The position numbers and the translations under genes are program-made. This document shows, one piece after another, positions 18,322 to 28,344 of a stretch of 64,000 nucleotides of DNA. Numbering within the stretch: position 1 is the stretch's first letter; each line of letters starts with the position of its first letter. The DNA is from Promethearchaeota archaeon. GTDB taxonomy: Archaea > Asgardarchaeota > Lokiarchaeia > Sigyniarchaeales > SOKP01. The notes beneath the pieces are model-generated. The model was given only the letters and a program-made list of their open reading frames with translations. It had not been told where the DNA came from and did not search any database. Location of the stretch: the NCBI GenBank assembly GCA_016840165.1, contig JAEOSU010000070.1, positions 1-64,000 on the forward strand. Direction: 5' to 3'.

Positions 18322-20529
18322 TTAGAGTATCTTTTTTAATTCCAAAATAAGATTCTTAGGATTTATTCTATCAAATTGAAATATTTCTGCCTTGCCATAT
18401 TCTTTGAAGTTCTCCTTTATCTCGTTAGCCGCAAATGTATTCACGCCCAATGATTTCGTCGCATAGCTCTTTTTTGGCTCTAAAACCACGAGATGAACCC
18501 CTTTTCTTGAGAGCGTTTTAGTTAATTCTTTCAGTTCATTGATTATCACATCATAATCACTCTGAACTTGTGCGATCAGGTCGGGGTATTTTACTGAGAT
18601 ATTTGCTCCACAATCTGAGCAGACAAAAATAACAGGAATCACATTTCTATTTTTTAATTTTTCAGCATTGATTAATTTGAGAGATTTTGTAAGTGCTGCA
18701 GCCATTGGAGTATAAGATTTGCCTTCAATGTTCTTTACTTTATTTGCGGCAGTTTTAAAATAAACTGTTGGTTTCTGGAGAACCACCGCTTCTTTCCCCC
18801 GAAAAATAATCAAACTAATCTTATCTTTTTTTCTATAACCTTCTTTCTGGAGGGATAAAATTACATCGGTCATTTGTTTTATTACATAATACATTGAAGC
18901 AGAGCTATCTAAAACAAAAAATAAGACTAAGGGGGCTCGATATTCATATATTTTGTCCATTAAATCATATTTGTCAAACCTTATAGGAAATTCAATATCG
19001 GTTTGATTGTAAATTGTATTTTTTAAATAATTTCTGATAGTTGCATCTAATGCTATACTTTTTGGTCTATTTCGTGGAGTTCGATAAGCAACATAATGCC
19101 CTTTTTGAGTTGACGCTATCTTTATTCTTCTACCAATACCTCTCCCACCATAATTAGAAACCTTCCGATCTTTTCTAATATTATCTAAAATGGAAGTCAT
19201 CTTTTTTTCCATCTTGTATATTAATGGCATAGCGTCAATTTCATAATCTAAGAAATTAAATAACTCTTCATTATTAGGAATTTCTTTTACTTTCCAACCT
19301 CCGGCTGGCGATGGGCTTCTCTTTTTATTATCAGGGAATTTTGGTGGTGGTAATTTCTGTTCTTTGGTTTCGGGTACATCCACCTTTTTTGGATCTACAG
19401 ACTGCCTTTTAAATTCTTTCTGTGGTGCATCATCATATTTTAATGGACCCTCTGTATCTTTATTTGGTTTGTAAGTATTGGTATCCTCATAGGCTTTCTG
19501 GATCTTTCCATATACCTCAACGATTTTAGCTTTTACCTCTTCAGGGGTCATTTCATAATGTAGACTTTGAATTCGATGTTCAAACACTAGGTCCATGGCA
19601 GCATTCAGATCATCTTCATTAACTCGTTTTCTTCCATTAAATGCAGCATGAGCACGGGCACAACGAATAAAAGTGATATCTGCCCTTTGAGAAAAAATAT
19701 CTAATTCATTGACTAGTCTAGAGACAAATTCATACACTGTTGATGGTATTTGGACTTCTTTTAGAATTTTGCGGGCGTTAACGATTTTTTTACGTAATTC
19801 CTCTTGCTCTTTTTCATAGTTTTTATAGAATTCTTTAGGATTATCATCAAATTCAATTACTCTTTTTGAAATTTCCGCTCGAAGCTTTGCATCGCGGGGC
19901 GCTTTAATTTTTACCTCCAAACCTAGTCGATCTGCGATCTGTGGTCTTAATTCCCCCTCTTCAGGATTCATTGAACCGACCAAAACGAATCGAGAGGGGT
20001 GAGATACTGAAATTCCTTCTCGCTCGATAATGTTAACTCCAGAGGCAGCAGAATCCAACAATACATCAACAATATGATCTTGTAATAAATTTATTTCATC
20101 AACATATAAGATACCTCTGTGGGCTTTAGCGAGCAATCCAGGATGAAGACTGCGGATACCTTCAGTAAGAACTTTATCTATGGATAATGAGCCAGTAACC
20201 ATATCTTCAGTAGCCCCCAACGGCATATCAGCAATACGCATATTGCGTTTTTCTATTTCAAGTTTACCAGATGCTAATCTTGTTTTACAGTCTTCACATA
20301 AAAGCTCAGGATCCGCTTTTGGATCACAAGAAAAGGCACATCCTTGAACAACTTCGATTTCAGGCATAACATCTACTAAAGATCTAACAGCTGTTGATTT
20401 TCCCGTACCTTGTTGGCCAGTAAGTAGTATACCTCCAATCTGAGGATCCGTAACGTTTAGAATCAACCCCAATTTCATTTTATCTTGTCCGAGTATGGCA
20501 GTAAAGGGGTAATTAATATTTTTAAACAT
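18322..20529 (-). CDS. Chelatase ChlI/ChlD-like AAA+ ATPase with C-terminal vWA domain
   Basis: YPFTAILGQ, GQQGTGKST, YVDEINLL and MNPEEGELRPQ motifs, a Pro-rich linker, and MIDAS DSSASM. Confidence 0.9.
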   Translation of the reverse strand: MFKNINYPFTAILGQDKMKLGLILNVTDPQIGGILLTGQQGTGKSTAVRSLVDVMPEIEVVQGCAFSCDPKADPELLCEDCKTRLASGKLEIEKRNMRIADMPLGATEDMVTGSLSIDKVLTEGIRSLHPGLLAKAHRGILYVDEINLLQDHIVDVLLDSAASGVNIIEREGISVSHPSRFVLVGSMNPEEGELRPQIADRLGLEVKIKAPRDAKLRAEISKRVIEFDDNPKEFYKNYEKEQEELRKKIVNARKILKEVQIPSTVYEFVSRLVNELDIFSQRADITFIRCARAHAAFNGRKRVNEDDLNAAMDLVFEHRIQSLHYEMTPEEVKAKIVEVYGKIQKAYEDTNTYKPNKDTEGPLKYDDAPQKEFKRQSVDPKKVDVPETKEQKLPPPKFPDNKKRSPSPAGGWKVKEIPNNEELFNFLDYEIDAMPLIYKMEKKMTSILDNIRKDRKVSNYGGRGIGRRIKIASTQKGHYVAYRTPRNRPKSIALDATIRNYLKNTIYNQTDIEFPIRFDKYDLMDKIYEYRAPLVLFFVLDSSASMYYVIKQMTDVILSLQKEGYRKKDKISLIIFRGKEAVVLQKPTVYFKTAANKVKNIEGKSYTPMAAALTKSLKLINAEKLKNRNVIPVIFVCSDCGANISVKYPDLIAQVQSDYDVIINELKELTKTLSRKGVHLVVLEPKKSYATKSLGVNTFAANEIKENFKEYGKAEIFQFDRINPKNLILELKKIL

Positions 20530-20737: not shown

Positions 20738-21688
20738 TTAAAATTTTTTTGAGATCTCAGCTAATTTAGAGTCTAAATTTGTCACTTCTTCATCCCAGAG
20801 TGACATGATCTCATTTACTTGTGGAATTATGGTATATCTTTCTTTATATTCAAGATAGTCCATAAATTCTTTAACATTTCCGATCTTAATATAAGTTTCA
20901 GCCACAAATTTTCGAATCTCATGAATTTGATTATTTAATACCTCTGGAATCCGATGAGATTCCCCTTTTCGCACCAAGGTCATTAAATATTCTTCAGTTC
21001 CAAGTAGAAGTGACCTAAATTTTTTTAATTTCTCTTCTACGAAAGTTTGATAAGTCTCAAATATTTTGTCCTTTGGGAAAAAGTTAGTGACATTTATGAT
21101 AAATTTTTGAGTTTGGTTAACTAATTGCTCCATATTATCATATCCCTCAACAACATAGTCAGTGGTATGATATGAAGCTTCAATCCCCCTAGAAGTATCA
21201 TCTAAACTAAATATTTTAAAGCCAGGATCATTTTTCAAAGGTTTTTCTGGATCTCCTTTTTTATCAGGCATTTCTACTTGGCGCAATAGTCTTTCAGGAT
21301 TGAATACAAGTGTGAAATAGGAGGGATTCGCTGTTTGATGGAAGGCAAGATGTCGAATATCAATATGACTTAACATTACTTTAAATCCCGGATGAGAATG
21401 CCATGAACCAACCGTATACAATCCCCTCGAAAAGGCCTCATCATCAATAAGAGTATATGTAACATTATCCTCTTCTGACCACTCATATTTATCGATGACT
21501 GCATCTTTATCAAACTTTTCATGCATAATAGGATATGATTCCTTAATCAAAATATCATCATCCTTCTTTTCACCGATAAAAACACCATTTACTTCTAACC
21601 ACTCTTCTTTTGGGATTTTTTTATTGGCAAATCTCACCGCTGCAGCAACCACAGTTAGATAAACATTTTTTGGTATTATTATAGTCAT
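20738..21688 (-). CDS. MPN/JAMM (Mov34/Rpn11-like) metalloprotease domain protein with helical C-terminus
   Basis: WLEVNG (catalytic Glu) and WHSHPGFKVMLSHID (HxH-x7-S-x2-D) motifs. Confidence 0.85.
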   Translation of the reverse strand: MTIIIPKNVYLTVVAAAVRFANKKIPKEEWLEVNGVFIGEKKDDDILIKESYPIMHEKFDKDAVIDKYEWSEEDNVTYTLIDDEAFSRGLYTVGSWHSHPGFKVMLSHIDIRHLAFHQTANPSYFTLVFNPERLLRQVEMPDKKGDPEKPLKNDPGFKIFSLDDTSRGIEASYHTTDYVVEGYDNMEQLVNQTQKFIINVTNFFPKDKIFETYQTFVEEKLKKFRSLLLGTEEYLMTLVRKGESHRIPEVLNNQIHEIRKFVAETYIKIGNVKEFMDYLEYKERYTIIPQVNEIMSLWDEEVTNLDSKLAEISKKF

Positions 21689-21866: not shown

Positions 21867-22487
21867 GTGAGTGAAAAAGGATTTGAACCATTAAGTAGCC
21901 AACTAGGTATTGCGGGAACATCCTATCGAATTCAATTAGGACTTATCAATGGTCGATGGGCTTCACGATTATTAAAGGGAAATAATGTAATCGATTCTTA
22001 TATTTATAAGGATGAAGATGTTCAAGGAGGGTATCCAAATCAAAATATAATAGTTGGATGGGTACTAAGAACTGTTGCCATTCCTAATATCAATCCTCAT
22101 CAAGTTATGAAGACTACTCAAGCTTTAGTAAAGCAAGCGATTGATAAAAAAGAACAGAAGAAAGTAATGGCCCCAATTTCGGAAACTAAGGAGGTTGAAT
22201 TAGAGAAAGTCCCAGAAAGCCAGCTAAAAAGAGTTCAGACCAAAGGTTGGGTAAAAGAGGAGGGAATGAAGTCAATACAAGAACTTGAGGAGGATAAACG
22301 TGAAGCATTCAGAGAAAGAATGAAATATAAACATGAAGAGGAAGCAGTAAGAAAGGGTGAGACTATACATATTACCCGAGACTTACCTTCAATTCCTAAA
22401 GCGGGAGATCAAACTTCCAAAAGTTGCCCGAGTTGTGGTAAGGATTTAGATTTTAAATATTGTCCCTATTGCGGACAAAAATTATAA
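21867..22487 (+). CDS. Hypothetical protein with C-terminal zinc ribbon
   Basis: C-terminal CPSCG..CPYCGQKL; beta-rich N-terminal domain. Confidence 0.8.
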   Translation: MSEKGFEPLSSQLGIAGTSYRIQLGLINGRWASRLLKGNNVIDSYIYKDEDVQGGYPNQNIIVGWVLRTVAIPNINPHQVMKTTQALVKQAIDKKEQKKVMAPISETKEVELEKVPESQLKRVQTKGWVKEEGMKSIQELEEDKREAFRERMKYKHEEEAVRKGETIHITRDLPSIPKAGDQTSKSCPSCGKDLDFKYCPYCGQKL

Positions 22488-22692: not shown

Positions 22693-24192
22693 ATGAGTGA
22701 TTTAATCATGGGGAAGTATGTTGATGAAAGCATAGTGATTGTTAAACCATTGGCTTATTATAAAATGTTAGTTCATATACTTCGATTTGGTTCGAAAACG
22801 AGGGATCATAGGCAATTTAAGGAAGTAATCGGGATGTTAGTGGGTCATTTAGAAGGGGAAGATAAAATTAAAGATGTTATAATTGAGGATGTAGTACCAA
22901 TTTCACATGGTGGGTCGATAGAAGTAAAATTCACAGAAGAACAATTAGGTGCTTTCGGAGAAATAGATTTACAAATCTTTAAAGAACACGGTTCAAAAAA
23001 TTGGTTCACTGTGGGTTGGTATCATTCACATCCAGGATTAAATATATTTTTCTCCTCAACTGACGTTTATAATCAACTTTTTTGGCAGGATAGGAATCCT
23101 AGTGGCGTTGGATTGGTATTTGATCATACCTATTTAGAACGTGAAGGAGATTTAGGATTTCGCGCCTTTCGATTAGATGATCCTTCAAAGGGCCTTAATT
23201 CGGATTATCATGAAGTTAAATCGAAAGTCGAACTCCCCTCCGATGATTCATTTTATTCAAATGTAATAGATTTAATTAATAACATTCAGTTGAACCTACC
23301 ACCATTATATGAATTAAATGAAACTACAGATTTATTTAGCGATGTATTTATTCCGGATAAAAAGGACTTAGAGATCCAAAAACCAGAATTACATCTCCAA
23401 GAATTGATATCTTCTTTGAAAACAGGCCTAAACTCCTTTTTAGATCTTTCTATGATTCCATTAATTACTTCTCTAAATGAATGGAGTCAAAATATTACTA
23501 GTAAAACTTATTATAATAATACCCAAATTCGAAACGACCTAATTGAATTGAAGGATAATCTCTCAATAAGTTTAAAGGAAGTACAAAAATCATTCAATTT
23601 CAATTTGCAGGATAATTTAAAGAAACTAGATGACTATATTTCTGATACATTTGATGTATTTGAAGAGGAACAAGATAATATTAAGCAAATTTATGAGGAG
23701 TTTAAAAGTAAAGTAAATCAAGAGACAGAAACTCTATTTAATGAAAAAATAAAGTTTTCAGTGGAACAAATCAATTTTCTATTTGAAAACTGCAGAAAGT
23801 TGATAGCAGATATGGATACAGTGAATATTAATTGTATTGAAAGCCTAAAAAAGAGTAATGAAATAACGGAAAATTTATCTAAAATCGTCATGCCCTCAGA
23901 AAAAAGGATCTTCAGCAAATTAGAAGAAGATAAAAACAAAATAATAGATAACTTCAAGAAAAAATCTGCTAATCTGGAAAACAATATCACGAATATGAAT
24001 AAAGAAACAAAAAAGATTTTATCTAATCTTAAAGCAGCTATTTTAGTTCTTGAAGGTTCAAAAGAACCTATTTTTAGTAAGATTGAGAAATTAGAAAGTG
24101 AAAAGAAAAATTTGCATTCAAATATTAAAGAACTAAAAAGTGAAAAACAAGAATTATTAAGTCAAATTAAAGATTTAAAGAAAGGAGGATAA
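22693..24192 (+). CDS. MPN+/JAMM protease (Rpn11/CSN5-like) with long coiled-coil tail
   Basis: PLAYYKMLVH, KEVIGMLVG and GWYHSHPGLNIFFSSTD motifs, then about 280 aa helical/heptad tail. Confidence 0.88.
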   Translation: MSDLIMGKYVDESIVIVKPLAYYKMLVHILRFGSKTRDHRQFKEVIGMLVGHLEGEDKIKDVIIEDVVPISHGGSIEVKFTEEQLGAFGEIDLQIFKEHGSKNWFTVGWYHSHPGLNIFFSSTDVYNQLFWQDRNPSGVGLVFDHTYLEREGDLGFRAFRLDDPSKGLNSDYHEVKSKVELPSDDSFYSNVIDLINNIQLNLPPLYELNETTDLFSDVFIPDKKDLEIQKPELHLQELISSLKTGLNSFLDLSMIPLITSLNEWSQNITSKTYYNNTQIRNDLIELKDNLSISLKEVQKSFNFNLQDNLKKLDDYISDTFDVFEEEQDNIKQIYEEFKSKVNQETETLFNEKIKFSVEQINFLFENCRKLIADMDTVNINCIESLKKSNEITENLSKIVMPSEKRIFSKLEEDKNKIIDNFKKKSANLENNITNMNKETKKILSNLKAAILVLEGSKEPIFSKIEKLESEKKNLHSNIKELKSEKQELLSQIKDLKKGG

Positions 24193-24198
24193 AGGTTA

Positions 24199-25602
24199 AT
24201 GCCAAAAAACTCGAAGAATTCTACTCAAACTGATAGCAAAGATAAGATAATCGAAAGTAAATCTGAAGGTAGTGTAAACATTCAATATGAAGCATTTAGG
24301 AAAATGATAACTCATACTCTCCGATTTGCTAATGAATCAAAGGAGGAAGATCAACAAGTATTAGGTTTGTGCATTGGTGAGTATTTCAAAGAAAATAAAA
24401 ATTATATTGTTAAGGATGTTATTCCGATTTGTCATGGTGATGCTGTTGAACTTGGATTTTCTAAAGAGATTCATGAGACTATCGAAGAAATTAAATCCCA
24501 ATATTCTGAATCTATTAATTCTATAATTGGTTGGTATCACTCCCATCTGGGATACGGACTATATTTTTCAAATTCGGATAAAGTGAATAACCTCAATTTC
24601 CAAAACTCAGAAAACATTTATGGATTTGGAATTGTTATAGAACAAACATTACTTAATGAGGATCAGAGTTTTGGAGTAGCAGTATTTCGGCTTAAAGACT
24701 TTAATAAAGGTTCTGAAAATGACTATATTAAGGTAGAATTTAATATAGAACCCCCAAATTCCATGGAATTTTTTAAGTGGGTAAAACAATTAGTTGAATC
24801 AACTCAAAGCAAAAGTTCTCAGATCATTTATGAATTTAATGAAGTACAAAAACCATCTCCCGAAAATCTTCAAAAAATTCCTACACTCCCACAAGAAGAG
24901 ACGGAATCTGAAGTAAAAGAAGAACTTTCTTTGCTCTATGGAGTTGATGAGGGTATGGAAAAATTAAAAGATTCTTTTCTCAAATTATATGAAATACAGT
25001 TGACTTCATGGATGAGTGATGTTTCTAATGGGGTTTTAATTGGTTCTGAATATATTAGGAGCTCTATTAACAATATCAAAACAACTTTAACTTCAGGACT
25101 GGAAGATGCTCAACGGATATTTGATAAAAGTTTTTCTGATATTTCGAATCTTTTCATGAAGAATATACGAGGAAGCGTCGATATACGGTTAGAAAATCAA
25201 ATTGAATTGAAAGAGAATATTAAAGCAATTAATGAGGAACAATTAAATAACTTATTCGCTCGTTTAGAAAAGGAAATACGCGATGTGACGAATAATTTCG
25301 AGGAAAAAATAACAAATATTAAAAAAGAATTGGAAAAGATTGCTCTAAATAATAATTCTATTCAACAATCTTTAATTCAAACAAATGATATATTAAGTAC
25401 CGTTTATGAAGAGACCGATAAATTATCAGATAACATCATCCAACATATAGAAAATTCAAGTAAATCATTCGAATCAAAGTTATTGAATGAATTAGAAGAT
25501 TTCTCTAGAAATATAACTCCAAATAAAGAAATTTACACTGAAATAGAAGACCTAATCGAGAGATTACAACGAGTGATTTCTGATTTACGCCAAGTAAAAT
25601 AA
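24199..25602 (+). CDS. MPN/JAMM domain protein lacking the catalytic Glu, with long coiled-coil tail
   Basis: EAFRKMITH, QQVLGLCIG (Q where the paralog has E) and GWYHSHLGYGLYFSNSD motifs; helical tail; starts 6 nt after the previous stop. Confidence 0.85.
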   Translation: MPKNSKNSTQTDSKDKIIESKSEGSVNIQYEAFRKMITHTLRFANESKEEDQQVLGLCIGEYFKENKNYIVKDVIPICHGDAVELGFSKEIHETIEEIKSQYSESINSIIGWYHSHLGYGLYFSNSDKVNNLNFQNSENIYGFGIVIEQTLLNEDQSFGVAVFRLKDFNKGSENDYIKVEFNIEPPNSMEFFKWVKQLVESTQSKSSQIIYEFNEVQKPSPENLQKIPTLPQEETESEVKEELSLLYGVDEGMEKLKDSFLKLYEIQLTSWMSDVSNGVLIGSEYIRSSINNIKTTLTSGLEDAQRIFDKSFSDISNLFMKNIRGSVDIRLENQIELKENIKAINEEQLNNLFARLEKEIRDVTNNFEEKITNIKKELEKIALNNNSIQQSLIQTNDILSTVYEETDKLSDNIIQHIENSSKSFESKLLNELEDFSRNITPNKEIYTEIEDLIERLQRVISDLRQVK

Positions 25603-25615
25603 CGAAAGCTTATTT

Positions 25616-25930
25616 TTAAAAAAATTCAAGATTAGAAACCATAGAGATATGGAGTTTATATTTAGGAATATTGGTTTTGAGTCGTTTCAATTGATTTCTT
25701 TTCGCTATATTGCTTAATATTCTTCCGATTTTATCGACTCTAATGTTAATCCCAAAATTTTCTTTCAAGACAGAATTAATTTTATAAGAAGAGAGAATCA
25801 CTACATTGGAGACATTTTTTTCACATAACATCTCAATAGCTTGTTTAACTAAAGATATTAATTTATCTATATCTTGTTTGCTATTCATACTTATATAATG
25901 ATTATATTTGAAACTTTTTAAAGCTTTCAA
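25616..25930 (-). CDS. Small basic, probable winged-helix protein
   Basis: LSSYKINSVLKENFGINIRVDKIGRILSNIAKRNQL..PKYKL has a wHTH-like pattern. The true start is probably the internal ATG (MNSKQ). Confidence 0.6.
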   Translation of the reverse strand: MKALKSFKYNHYISMNSKQDIDKLISLVKQAIEMLCEKNVSNVVILSSYKINSVLKENFGINIRVDKIGRILSNIAKRNQLKRLKTNIPKYKLHISMVSNLEFF

Positions 25931-26025: not shown

Positions 26026-28344
26026 ATGAAAAAGTTAAACCTTTTATCAAAATTTAAAAATTCTTTAAAACCTCTTTTTAGAAAAATCATATTTAAAGAG
26101 ATCTATGTTGAGGGAAAAGAGCCACCTAAATCATTTGCTTTTGAAAAAGAATTTTTAGGCATCTATTGCATATTTTTATTCTATTCTTTCATTTTATTAC
26201 TTGGAATTAATTTTCCTGATAACTTATTTATTTATTTAATAACATTTGGGAATCCATTTGCTTTTGGAAATGCAATTGTAGCACTTTTTTTATGCCTTTC
26301 TTTATTATTTAGTAACGATAAAATAAGACTCTTCATTTTCGAAGGTCACACCGTATTAAAGCAAGTAATTTTATATGTCGGTATCACCACTGTTTTTTAT
26401 TTTGTATTTTTAAGTCTTTCCAGCCTCAATATTATGAGTTATCTTCTTTGTTTAGCAACATTCTGGCTTATATTATTAAGTACAAGATTTTTTATGTATT
26501 CTCGAAAATTTGCTACCAAAATTGAAGCTCAAGCTATAGAAAAGTATTCATCATTACGGCGAGCAGGGGCTTTTATCACCCCTTATTTTATTTTAGGCGT
26601 TTTAGTGGCATTAGCATTGATATATCGGAGTTTTTTAGTCTTTATATCGTTAGATCTATTTGCTTTATCTGATCCAGTCAGTGCGGTAAATATTTATATT
26701 ATTGAAATGCGTTTAATAATGCCTTTAATCTACTTTAGCCTAATACTCACTTTACTCTTCATTATATTTGAATTTGTATTCACAAGAAAGAAAGCAGAAA
26801 CAAAACGAGCGGGATTATATGATAACTTTACCTTTTCCCTCATTGTGTTATTTATCTTTTTCTTTCAGATCCTTCAAGTGACTATATTTTTATTTTTAAG
26901 CTCTGAAACCGTATCTGCTCTAAAAACTACAGTTGGTACAACAAGCTCACCTATATCGTATATTTTTATATTTGAATTTTTAATTTCTATGTTTTTTCTC
27001 TACCGCATTATTAAAAAGTTTGGACGATCAATTGGATGGCAACTATTATTCTTTAAGAGAGATGGATTGGTTCTTTTGATATTAGGTTGTGTATTTGCCC
27101 AAACGCTGAGCCGATTTTCTTTACAAACACAGATTCCAAATCAATCAATAACCATTTTGGGGAATTTCTTTATGGCAGATAAATATGTTGTTTCTATAAT
27201 TATGATCATCTTTCTTGGATTGACCCTACTAATTTACTATCTTAAACCTCATGAAACCTCAATGTTTATTCGATTACAAAAGGAAACGGTGGATAAAAAA
27301 GAAGAAAGCATGGATATAATCTATAAATTAATTAAAAGTGAGTATATTCGACGTGGAGATGCATATCCAATTGAAATTTTGGAAAGAGAATTGATTAAAG
27401 CGACTAAGTTACCGAAAAATGAGGTATATTCCTTACTGGATAAACTCTCAGATGAAAGCATTGATATTGTTTTAACCGAAAAGAAAAATGATTATGGTAT
27501 AAAACAGAAATTCATTGATTTTACATCAGTAACCGAGAAATTTGACAGCAAAACTGTTGCAGAAAGAAAAGCGAAGAATTTTTTATCTCAACGATTATAT
27601 AAAACAATTTCGAGCAAAAAAACTAAAGATTTGAAACTAAGTAGCAACATTAAATCGGAAAAAGCATCTGATCAATTTTTGAGCTCCTTAGCAACGGATA
27701 TATCAAAAAAACATAGAGATGAGCAAAAAATCAAATTAAAACAAAACAATACAGAAATCTCATTTATTAGAAAGGAGGTCCCTGAGTCATTAAAGCATTC
27801 AATATTAACTATACTTAAAAAGGAGTATATCTATCGTATTGAAAATAAAGAGAAATATCCTGATTTTACTTATCCCATATCAGAAATCGCCTCTACAGTC
27901 CAATTGGAAACAAGAATTAATCCAGGAGAATTATATCCTATCTTGGAAACCCTTAATCAAACTGATATAGAATTAAGATTACTAGATAATCCCAATGAAC
28001 CAGAAGATAAAATAATTGACTTTTATCCTATAGATGATGATTTAAATTATACTTTGTCAAGTTTTAGACCCAACCAATATTCTAAGATTAAGATAGAATT
28101 TATGAATAATTTTATTAAACATTTAAAACGCAAACGTGTTAAAGCAACTCTCTCTAAGATAAAGAAGAATATATCAAATGAAAATGAGGAACAGAAATAC
28201 TGGAATAAACTTTATCAAATTTTAATTAATTATTTTCCGAATTTCGAGGAAGTTCTCCAAAAAGAGAGAGAGGGTGGAGATATATCAAAAGTTCTTAAAA
28301 TATTCCCTCTCAAAGATATTGATGTATTCAATATTGAATCCTAA
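26026..28344 (+). CDS. Large polytopic membrane protein (~10 TM) with cytosolic tandem winged-helix-like repeats
   Basis: Hydrophobic N-terminal ~410 aa, followed by two related repeats I..L/IK.EYI.R..YPI..I/L...T.L/I...E.Y.L/IL..L. Confidence 0.8.
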   Translation: MKKLNLLSKFKNSLKPLFRKIIFKEIYVEGKEPPKSFAFEKEFLGIYCIFLFYSFILLLGINFPDNLFIYLITFGNPFAFGNAIVALFLCLSLLFSNDKIRLFIFEGHTVLKQVILYVGITTVFYFVFLSLSSLNIMSYLLCLATFWLILLSTRFFMYSRKFATKIEAQAIEKYSSLRRAGAFITPYFILGVLVALALIYRSFLVFISLDLFALSDPVSAVNIYIIEMRLIMPLIYFSLILTLLFIIFEFVFTRKKAETKRAGLYDNFTFSLIVLFIFFFQILQVTIFLFLSSETVSALKTTVGTTSSPISYIFIFEFLISMFFLYRIIKKFGRSIGWQLLFFKRDGLVLLILGCVFAQTLSRFSLQTQIPNQSITILGNFFMADKYVVSIIMIIFLGLTLLIYYLKPHETSMFIRLQKETVDKKEESMDIIYKLIKSEYIRRGDAYPIEILERELIKATKLPKNEVYSLLDKLSDESIDIVLTEKKNDYGIKQKFIDFTSVTEKFDSKTVAERKAKNFLSQRLYKTISSKKTKDLKLSSNIKSEKASDQFLSSLATDISKKHRDEQKIKLKQNNTEISFIRKEVPESLKHSILTILKKEYIYRIENKEKYPDFTYPISEIASTVQLETRINPGELYPILETLNQTDIELRLLDNPNEPEDKIIDFYPIDDDLNYTLSSFRPNQYSKIKIEFMNNFIKHLKRKRVKATLSKIKKNISNENEEQKYWNKLYQILINYFPNFEEVLQKEREGGDISKVLKIFPLKDIDVFNIES

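Follow-up and report, generated by a model that had tools for sequence, protein, structure and literature searches.

A tandem pair of stalked MPN genes with one complete and one degenerate JAMM site in a Lokiarchaeia-type archaeal family

Results

Two adjacent MPN genes with unequal active sites

We analyzed a 64,000-nt stretch of contig JAEOSU010000070.1 from a Promethearchaeota archaeon (hereafter the window; G+C content ~30%), in which two neighbouring genes, MPN-A and MPN-B, each encode an MPN head followed by a long helical tail (Table 1). The nearest protein matches of the window carry Promethearchaeota or Lokiarchaeota MAG labels in public sources. As proposed in a first-pass annotation of this DNA, the two open reading frames lie 6 nt apart (24193-24198) and both encode MPN proteins: MPN-A scores 52.5 bits (E = 5.1e-14) and MPN-B 39.4 bits (E = 6.1e-10) against the Pfam JAB/MPN family (PF01398), whose gathering cut-off is 22.5 bits. 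The two proteins share 29% identity over 337 residues (E = 1e-33), with an alignment that extends past the MPN domain into the tail, and on this comparison they are paralogues. Stalk homology was seen only between these two among the six MPN paralogues of the genome. The short gap and a GGAGG element of MPN-B placed inside the last codons of MPN-A point to an operon with translational coupling, from which MPN-A and MPN-B would be made as subunits of one heteromeric complex.

Table 1 Features of the MPN-A/MPN-B locus and related genes elsewhere in the genome (aa, amino acids)
Feature	Position	Strand	Description
MPN-A	22693-24192	+	499 aa; JAMM head ~1-200, ~45-residue linker, single long helix 249-496
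MPN-A catalytic residues	E44 22822-22824; H111 23023-23025; H113 23029-23031; S121 23053-23055; D124 23062-23064	+	Assigned from alignment columns
MPN-B	24199-25602	+	467 aa; degenerate-site MPN head ~20-205, low-confidence linker 218-256, helices 249-437 and 443-466
GGAGG, Shine-Dalgarno-like element of MPN-B	24184-24188	+	Within the final codons of MPN-A, 10 nt 5' of the MPN-B ATG
MPN-B Q53 codon	24355-24357	+	Position of the JAMM catalytic Glu by alignment to Rpn11 and to E44 of MPN-A
MPN-B kept zinc-site residues	H114 24538-24540; H116 24544-24546; S124 24568-24570; D127 24577-24579	+	Assigned by alignment
Head-stalk linker motif	~23305-23370 (MPN-A residues 205-225); ~24826-24890 (MPN-B residues 210-230)	+	Assigned from alignments
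Zn-ribbon protein	21867-22487	+	206 aa; directly 5' of MPN-A, same strand
MPN-C	20738-21688	-	316 aa; third MPN paralogue, intact JAMM site, ~130-residue helical tail
ChlI/ChlD-type AAA+ and VWA fusion	18322-20529	-	Putative cobaltochelatase subunit
Small winged helix-turn-helix (wHTH)-like gene	25616-25930	-	104-aa protein, kept downstream of MPN-B across family f1
Polytopic membrane protein	26026-28344	+	772 aa, kept downstream of MPN-B across family f1
Ubiquitin operon	L002 3035-7267, contig C58		Ubiquitin-like protein 114 aa ending ...TAGRLI; E1-like 410 aa; E2-like 175 aa; Rpn11-like JAMM 277 aa; RING-type protein 379 aa
Further MPN+ protein	L001 5296-6849, contig C4	+	517 aa, TPR-like helical tail
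Further MPN+ protein	L003 4515-5741, contig C2	-	408 aa, coiled-coil-like tail

Both heads belong to the MPN fold by sequence and by predicted structure. The closest PDB sequence to MPN-A was the Rpn11-like protein of Caldiarchaeum (6fjv, E = 4.8e-10), followed by Rpn11, BRCC36 and CSN5, and the PDB sequences matched by MPN-B were CSN5 and Rpn11. AlphaFold2 models built from family alignments contain an MPN head of ~200 residues in each protein (predicted local distance difference test score (pLDDT) 76.5 for the MPN-A model). In Foldseek searches, the MPN-A model had BRCC36 as its top match (6gvw_B, E = 3.4e-12), with CSN5 and Rpn11 also found, and the MPN-B model had Rpn11 and CSN5; these MPN-fold matches had a probability of 1.00 for both models. 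In both kinds of comparison, the MPN-B head is closest to the active subunits Rpn11 and CSN5, and not to Rpn8 or CSN6.

The JAMM motif, E-x(n)-H-S/T-H-x7-S-x2-D, is complete in MPN-A (K43-E44-V-I-G, H111-S-H113-P, S121 and D124), by which the protein would be classed as a JAMM/MPN+ metalloisopeptidase, and incomplete in MPN-B (Q52-Q53-V-L-G, H114-S-H116-L, S124 and D127). HMMER aligned ‘qQVLGL’ of MPN-B to ‘mEVMGL’ of yeast Rpn11, which puts Q53 at the catalytic Glu, and MAFFT alignments of MPN-B with MPN-A and 22 homologues place Q53 there as well. Thus, the initial reading of a full JAMM site in the first gene, and of a Gln at the Glu position with HSH..S..D kept in the second, was correct. 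Because of Q53, MPN-B is not filed as MPN+. A conserved substitute Glu close to Q53 (EEDQQ) is unlikely, since the residues at -1 to -3 before Q53, acidic ones included, vary in close orthologues (Q/T/E, D/S/N/K).

The pair was found in one family only

We searched a profile of MPN-B in 151 Asgard genomes, 26 of which belong to the window's own Lokiarchaeia-type family (family f1) and 125 to others. Full-length matches came only from family f1, in 24 of its 26 genomes and from six genera; the MPN-A/MPN-B pair was not found in the 125 other genomes searched, and all matches outside the family were to the MPN domain only, with E values of 1e-20 or weaker. Twenty-four loci were fetched, 23 of which hold both genes. 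MPN-A adjoins MPN-B wherever the contig permits, and the two are separated by 0-12 nt, or overlap by 8 nt, in 22 of the 23 loci, so that the close linkage noticed in the window is a property of its relatives too. A search of 1.84 billion cluster representatives (50% identity) returned ~130 proteins at E ≤ 1e-30, of which ~65 matched via the stalk; the pair therefore represents a small, lineage-restricted family.

Catalytic decay is limited to MPN-B, which is kept by selection

The E/H/H/S/D set of MPN-A is intact in all 23 syntenic orthologues, and these columns are invariant in an alignment of 60 sequences. All five residues are present in only three of 24 MPN-B orthologues, and three more differ by Ser→Thr only. 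The Glu is replaced by Gln in five (two separate clades, one of which includes the window), the second His by Arg in six, and the orthologues beyond these groups, seven in number, show other losses. Counted by residue, the first His has become Ser, Leu, Val or Ile in eight of the 24, and the Asp has been lost (D→E/A/T) in three. The tree requires at least six independent events for these losses, and several states coexist inside the window's genus: within this single genus, one species has a canonical MPN-B, some carry E→Q, and still others are without a zinc ligand. The same asymmetry appears among the cluster representatives, where 27 of 31 MPN-B-type proteins are without at least one catalytic residue and 33 of 36 MPN-A-type proteins are intact; the three exceptions have MPN-B-like lengths or patterns and look like misassigned MPN-B. 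Catalytic decay is thus limited to one member of the pair across the family, and at the level of sequence one MPN paralogue is competent and the other is not. The suggestion of a degenerate partner therefore gained support beyond the window. The refuting condition set by the first-pass annotation, that orthologues mostly retain the Glu, nevertheless holds to the letter: the Glu is present in 19 of 24 MPN-B orthologues and the Gln in two sub-lineages only, although most of the Glu-keeping orthologues have lost a zinc ligand or the Ser or Asp.

Several measures indicate that MPN-B is under purifying selection and is a functional, not a dying, gene. First, its reading frame is uninterrupted in each of the 24 genomes examined. 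Second, the ratio of non-synonymous to synonymous substitution rates (dN/dS) is 0.12-0.41 over ten close pairs, lineages without a zinc ligand included, next to 0.08-0.28 for MPN-A and 0.05-0.13 for MPN-C, the third MPN paralogue at the locus. Third, sixteen alignment columns of MPN-B are invariant. The rate of MPN-B is 1.4 times that of MPN-A for the whole protein and double for the head (head distance 1.03 vs 0.52), and the faster head fits a relaxed catalytic constraint. In a quick tree of the archaeal sequences, MPN-A and MPN-B form sister clades with congruent subtrees, and MPN-B has been kept since before the radiation of the six genera.

The stalks are long amphipathic helices

In the AlphaFold2 models, the stalk of MPN-A is one helix and that of MPN-B a long helix followed by a short one (Table 1). 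Head and stalk are joined by a low-confidence or disordered linker of ~45 residues with a short motif common to both families (ExNE...IP), which reads E207-x-N209-E210...P221 in MPN-A and E212..E215...L224-Q-E-I-P228 in MPN-B. All 36 MPN-B orthologues have a tail of 217-221 residues, and that of MPN-A varies in length (226-284 residues). The hydrophobic period, averaged over 60 MPN-A and 36 MPN-B tails, is 3.6-3.65, and the power at 3.5 does not exceed the background. Hence, of the helical or coiled-coil tails described initially, the long helices stand and a heptad coiled coil is unsupported, and because of the observed period ‘long amphipathic helical stalk’ is a safer term than ‘coiled coil’. 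Lone helices of ~220-250 residues need a partner or a surface for stability.

Correlated evolution and a weak complex prediction point to a possible partnership

Evolutionary rates were correlated from pairwise distances, corrected by regression for how far the neighbouring genes have diverged, with 500 permutations. The partial r between MPN-A and MPN-B was 0.84 (linear fit) or 0.72 (cubic fit), and none of the 500 permutations was as high; the values for MPN-A/MPN-C and MPN-B/MPN-C were 0.22-0.23. When the proteins were divided, head-head and stalk-stalk comparisons each gave 0.60, as against 0.15 for the MPN-A head with the MPN-B stalk and 0.20 for the MPN-A head with its own stalk. We regard this correlation as soft evidence for a partnership. 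Complex prediction was run on full-length MPN-A and MPN-B with three controls, and gave weak support, with an interaction prediction score from aligned errors (ipSAE) of 0.46 (0.44, 0.46 and 0.46 in the individual runs) vs 0.00 for the best of the three controls. Of 80 solved complexes, 58 reach the ipSAE mark applied, as do two of 110 mismatched pairs; only seven of the 80, and both mismatched pairs, do so with values of 0.60 or less. The runs share at least 41% of their contacts, and the partner pLDDT is at least 68. Taken together, operon structure, correlated evolution and the weak pass in complex prediction lend indirect support to an MPN-A/MPN-B heteromer.

Neighbouring genes and ubiquitin context

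The conserved gene order in the 24 loci is Zn-ribbon (+), MPN-A (+), MPN-B (+) and the small wHTH-like gene (-), usually flanked on one side by MPN-C (-) and the cobaltochelatase-like AAA/VWA gene and on the other by the polytopic membrane protein. The Zn-ribbon protein is found 5' of MPN-A in 23 of 23 loci and is possibly part of the MPN-A/MPN-B system. After an N-terminal domain without an assignment, it ends in a CxxC...CxxC zinc ribbon, to which its Pfam matches, all under the cut-off, are restricted; searches of Pfam, NCBIfam and PDB sequences gave no relative beyond the ribbon. Candidate roles for it in the MPN-A/MPN-B unit are those of an adaptor or of a protein that binds ubiquitin. 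Neither the Zn-ribbon protein nor the 104-aa protein matched a PDB sequence below E = 0.27, the 104-aa protein and the 772-aa membrane protein had no match in any family searched, and NCBIfam returned no family for these three proteins or for MPN-A, MPN-B and MPN-C.

MPN-C, which the first-pass annotation does not mention alongside the pair, evolves slowly and is present in 18 of 24 loci with its site intact in all, and is missing beside the pair in one genus (g4); divergently oriented, it probably lies outside the MPN-A/MPN-B unit. The AAA+/VWA neighbour was considered as an Rpn10-like or MoxR-like partner and rejected: it is a putative cobaltochelatase subunit by its matches to TIGR02442 (599 bits, where the curated cut-off is 779) and BchI/ChlI (398 bits), and is absent beside the pair in g4. 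Its synteny with the MPN cluster in five of the six genera is probably due to genome collinearity only.

A canonical Asgard ubiquitin operon is located on another contig, apart from MPN-A and MPN-B (Table 1); its 379-aa product is a membrane protein whose C-terminal region is rich in Cys and RING-like. The genome contains at least four ubiquitin-family matches; with the operon, these make ubiquitin-type substrates and a diversified set of deubiquitinases plausible. Two of the other MPN+ proteins, on contigs C4 and C2, have intact catalytic residues, are kept in the family, and are single genes without a degenerate twin.

Discussion

We propose, with a probability of roughly 0.55, that MPN-A and MPN-B form a heteromer in which an active isopeptidase is joined by a pseudoenzyme, the pair having arisen by a lineage-specific duplication. 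As the zinc (JAMM) isopeptidase, MPN-A would most likely take off the host's own ubiquitin or a ubiquitin-like modifier, and MPN-B would be its non-catalytic twin, pairing with it head to head and stalk to stalk. By analogy with Rpn8, CSN6 and Abraxas/KIAA0157, MPN-B might act as a scaffold, an activator or a substrate holder. In the window it keeps the zinc ligands and has Q53 in place of the general-base Glu, and could thus bind zinc and a ubiquitin tail with no cutting. The stalk, ~35 nm long, may serve as a spacer or a tether. Gene structure, motif states, conservation, selection and co-evolution are observed here; that the two proteins bind, that MPN-A is active and on which substrate, and what the stalks do is inferred from these data.

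Several observations weigh against this proposal. The ubiquitin operon has a JAMM protein of its own, so that the substrate of MPN-A need not be ubiquitin. Between three and six MPN-B orthologues have a complete or near-complete site, and in certain species MPN-B may therefore have remained an enzyme. The hydrophobic period of the stalks is unlike that of a canonical heptad coiled coil, and the MPN-A stalk, variable and ~30 residues longer than that of MPN-B, is a poor fit to simple in-register pairing. In one genome (L014), four open reading frames occupy 6 kb between MPN-A and MPN-B (L014 2320-8365). Fast-evolving paralogues of similar composition can show correlated rates without contact, and Mantel-type permutations are liberal for related genomes. 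Finally, the complex prediction is a weak pass without a reported interface, to which likeness to solved MPN heterodimers may contribute.

Active/inactive MPN pairs are central to the proteasome lid, the COP9 signalosome, eIF3 and BRISC. The closest design to the one proposed here is that of BRCC36-Abraxas and BRCC36-KIAA0157 (ABRO1), the cores of BRCA1-A and BRISC, in which an MPN+ protein is joined to an MPN- paralogue and the C-terminal helices of the two pair. The activity of BRCC36 is reported to require its MPN- partner (PMC4579573). The differences are as follows. First, the coiled coil is short in BRCC36-Abraxas, whereas the stalks here span 220-250 residues. Second, MPN-B is no orthologue of Abraxas but the sister of MPN-A within one archaeal family. 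Third, the MPN-B site, unlike that of the BRCC36-Abraxas system, is only partly decayed and varies by species. Next closest are Rpn11-Rpn8 and CSN5-CSN6, likewise MPN+/MPN- paralogue pairs, of which Rpn11 and CSN5 are the best matches of both heads; their C-terminal helices are short and enter the lid bundle, in contrast to the single long helices here. The lid and the CSN also have PCI-type partners, whereas the conserved core here consists of the Zn-ribbon protein, MPN-A, MPN-B and the wHTH-like gene, and in the neighbourhood, to which this check was confined, no PCI family was found at E ≤ 0.01.

The closest solved sequence relative of MPN-A is CsRpn11 of Caldiarchaeum subterraneum (6FJV/6FJU), an archaeal, eukaryote-like JAMM protein that processes ubiquitin and crystallises as a homodimer (PMC6043591). 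CsRpn11 and the JAMM proteins of Asgard operons are ~200-280 aa in length and single, with neither stalk nor inactive twin, unlike MPN-A and MPN-B. Fuchs et al. (2018) state that archaea are not known to have the heterodimer arrangement, and no later account of an MPN+/MPN- pair from an archaeon came up in our full-text literature search. The first-pass annotation had offered two positions for such a pair, as an intermediate to the eukaryotic lid/CSN/BRISC core or as a parallel to it. The first is not supported and the second is preferred on the same evidence: MPN-A and MPN-B are sister clades, nearest to each other and with shared stalk homology, MPN-B is Rpn11/CSN5-like, and the pair was found in only one of the families searched. 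Because the gene was duplicated inside a single archaeal family, we find no common descent with a eukaryotic MPN pair. On sequence grounds, the best reading is a lineage-specific duplication in which a whole stalked MPN gene was copied within one Lokiarchaeia-type family; the resulting pair would be a parallel invention to Rpn11-Rpn8 and BRCC36-Abraxas and not an ancestor of either.

A less probable explanation is that MPN-A and MPN-B are independent stalked proteins, each homo-oligomeric via its stalk, with MPN-A a deubiquitinase, MPN-B a non-catalytic reader of ubiquitin or ubiquitin-like proteins or, in some species, a substrate-specific enzyme, and the operon reflecting a common pathway. 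The homodimer in the CsRpn11 crystal is a precedent for this, as are three further single stalked MPN genes in the genome that have no twin, and the unequal stalks, the weak pass in complex prediction and the MPN-B orthologues with all catalytic residues are in keeping with it. Independent proteins would, however, leave unaccounted for the translational coupling across gaps of 0-12 nt that 22 of 23 loci share, the covariation of matched domains (0.60 vs 0.15-0.20 for mismatched parts), and a catalytic decay limited to exactly one member of the pair.

We consider it unlikely that the stalks are instead amphipathic helices that bind surfaces or form filaments, as in apolipoproteins, phasins or perilipins, and that carry the heads to a membrane, to a granule of lipid or polymer, or to a cytoskeletal lattice, MPN-A and MPN-B being two coat components that may or may not touch. 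A period of 3.6-3.65 instead of 3.5 would fit such helices, but stutters in a coiled coil likewise lift the mean period above 3.5. Weak Pfam matches to Apolipoprotein and Baculo_PEP_C, and a fragment of an MPN-B tail labelled ‘phasin’ in one source, point in the same direction; the family matches are nevertheless all under the cut-off and typical of any K/E/L-rich helix. The conserved polytopic membrane protein downstream would suit a membrane location, yet the conserved core contains no lipid or granule genes, and a tail of such strict length as that of MPN-B is more suggestive of a rod used as a ruler than of a coat. That MPN-B is a redundant duplicate drifting to loss, with no function of its own, is very improbable, for although its catalytic residues were lost many times and it outpaces MPN-A, above all in the head, its frame is open in 24 genomes with dN/dS of 0.12-0.41, sixteen columns and the tail length are fixed, and it has been retained since before the six-genus radiation.

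If the heteromer of enzyme and pseudoenzyme is real, it would mean that the MPN design of an enzyme with a dead partner evolves easily given a ubiquitin system. The MPN-B orthologues, from canonical through E→Q to zinc-ligand loss, would then be a natural series of partners in which the use of a dead twin, for activation, substrate holding or assembly, could be tested. More speculatively, and we would put this below an even chance, MPN-A/MPN-B would be the first prokaryotic enzyme/pseudoenzyme MPN heterodimer, independent of the eukaryotic ones, in which dependence on the partner preceded catalytic decay and in which a pair of rigid, length-conserved ~35-nm stalks acts as a ruler that keeps the deubiquitinase head a set distance away from an anchor, perhaps the Zn-ribbon or the membrane protein. 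The pair is a further sign that the ubiquitin machinery of Lokiarchaeia has diversified, and has no direct bearing on the ancestry of eukaryotic MPN complexes.

Two minor observations concern gene arrangement. A scan for sigma-70 promoters and terminators gave 36 sites vs 30.6 expected, a count that is uninformative for an archaeon. The four open reading frames inserted in L014 are unrelated and include a hexapeptide-repeat transferase and a weak match to Arf-family GTPases, and the MPN-B of this genome has lost both the first His and the Asp.

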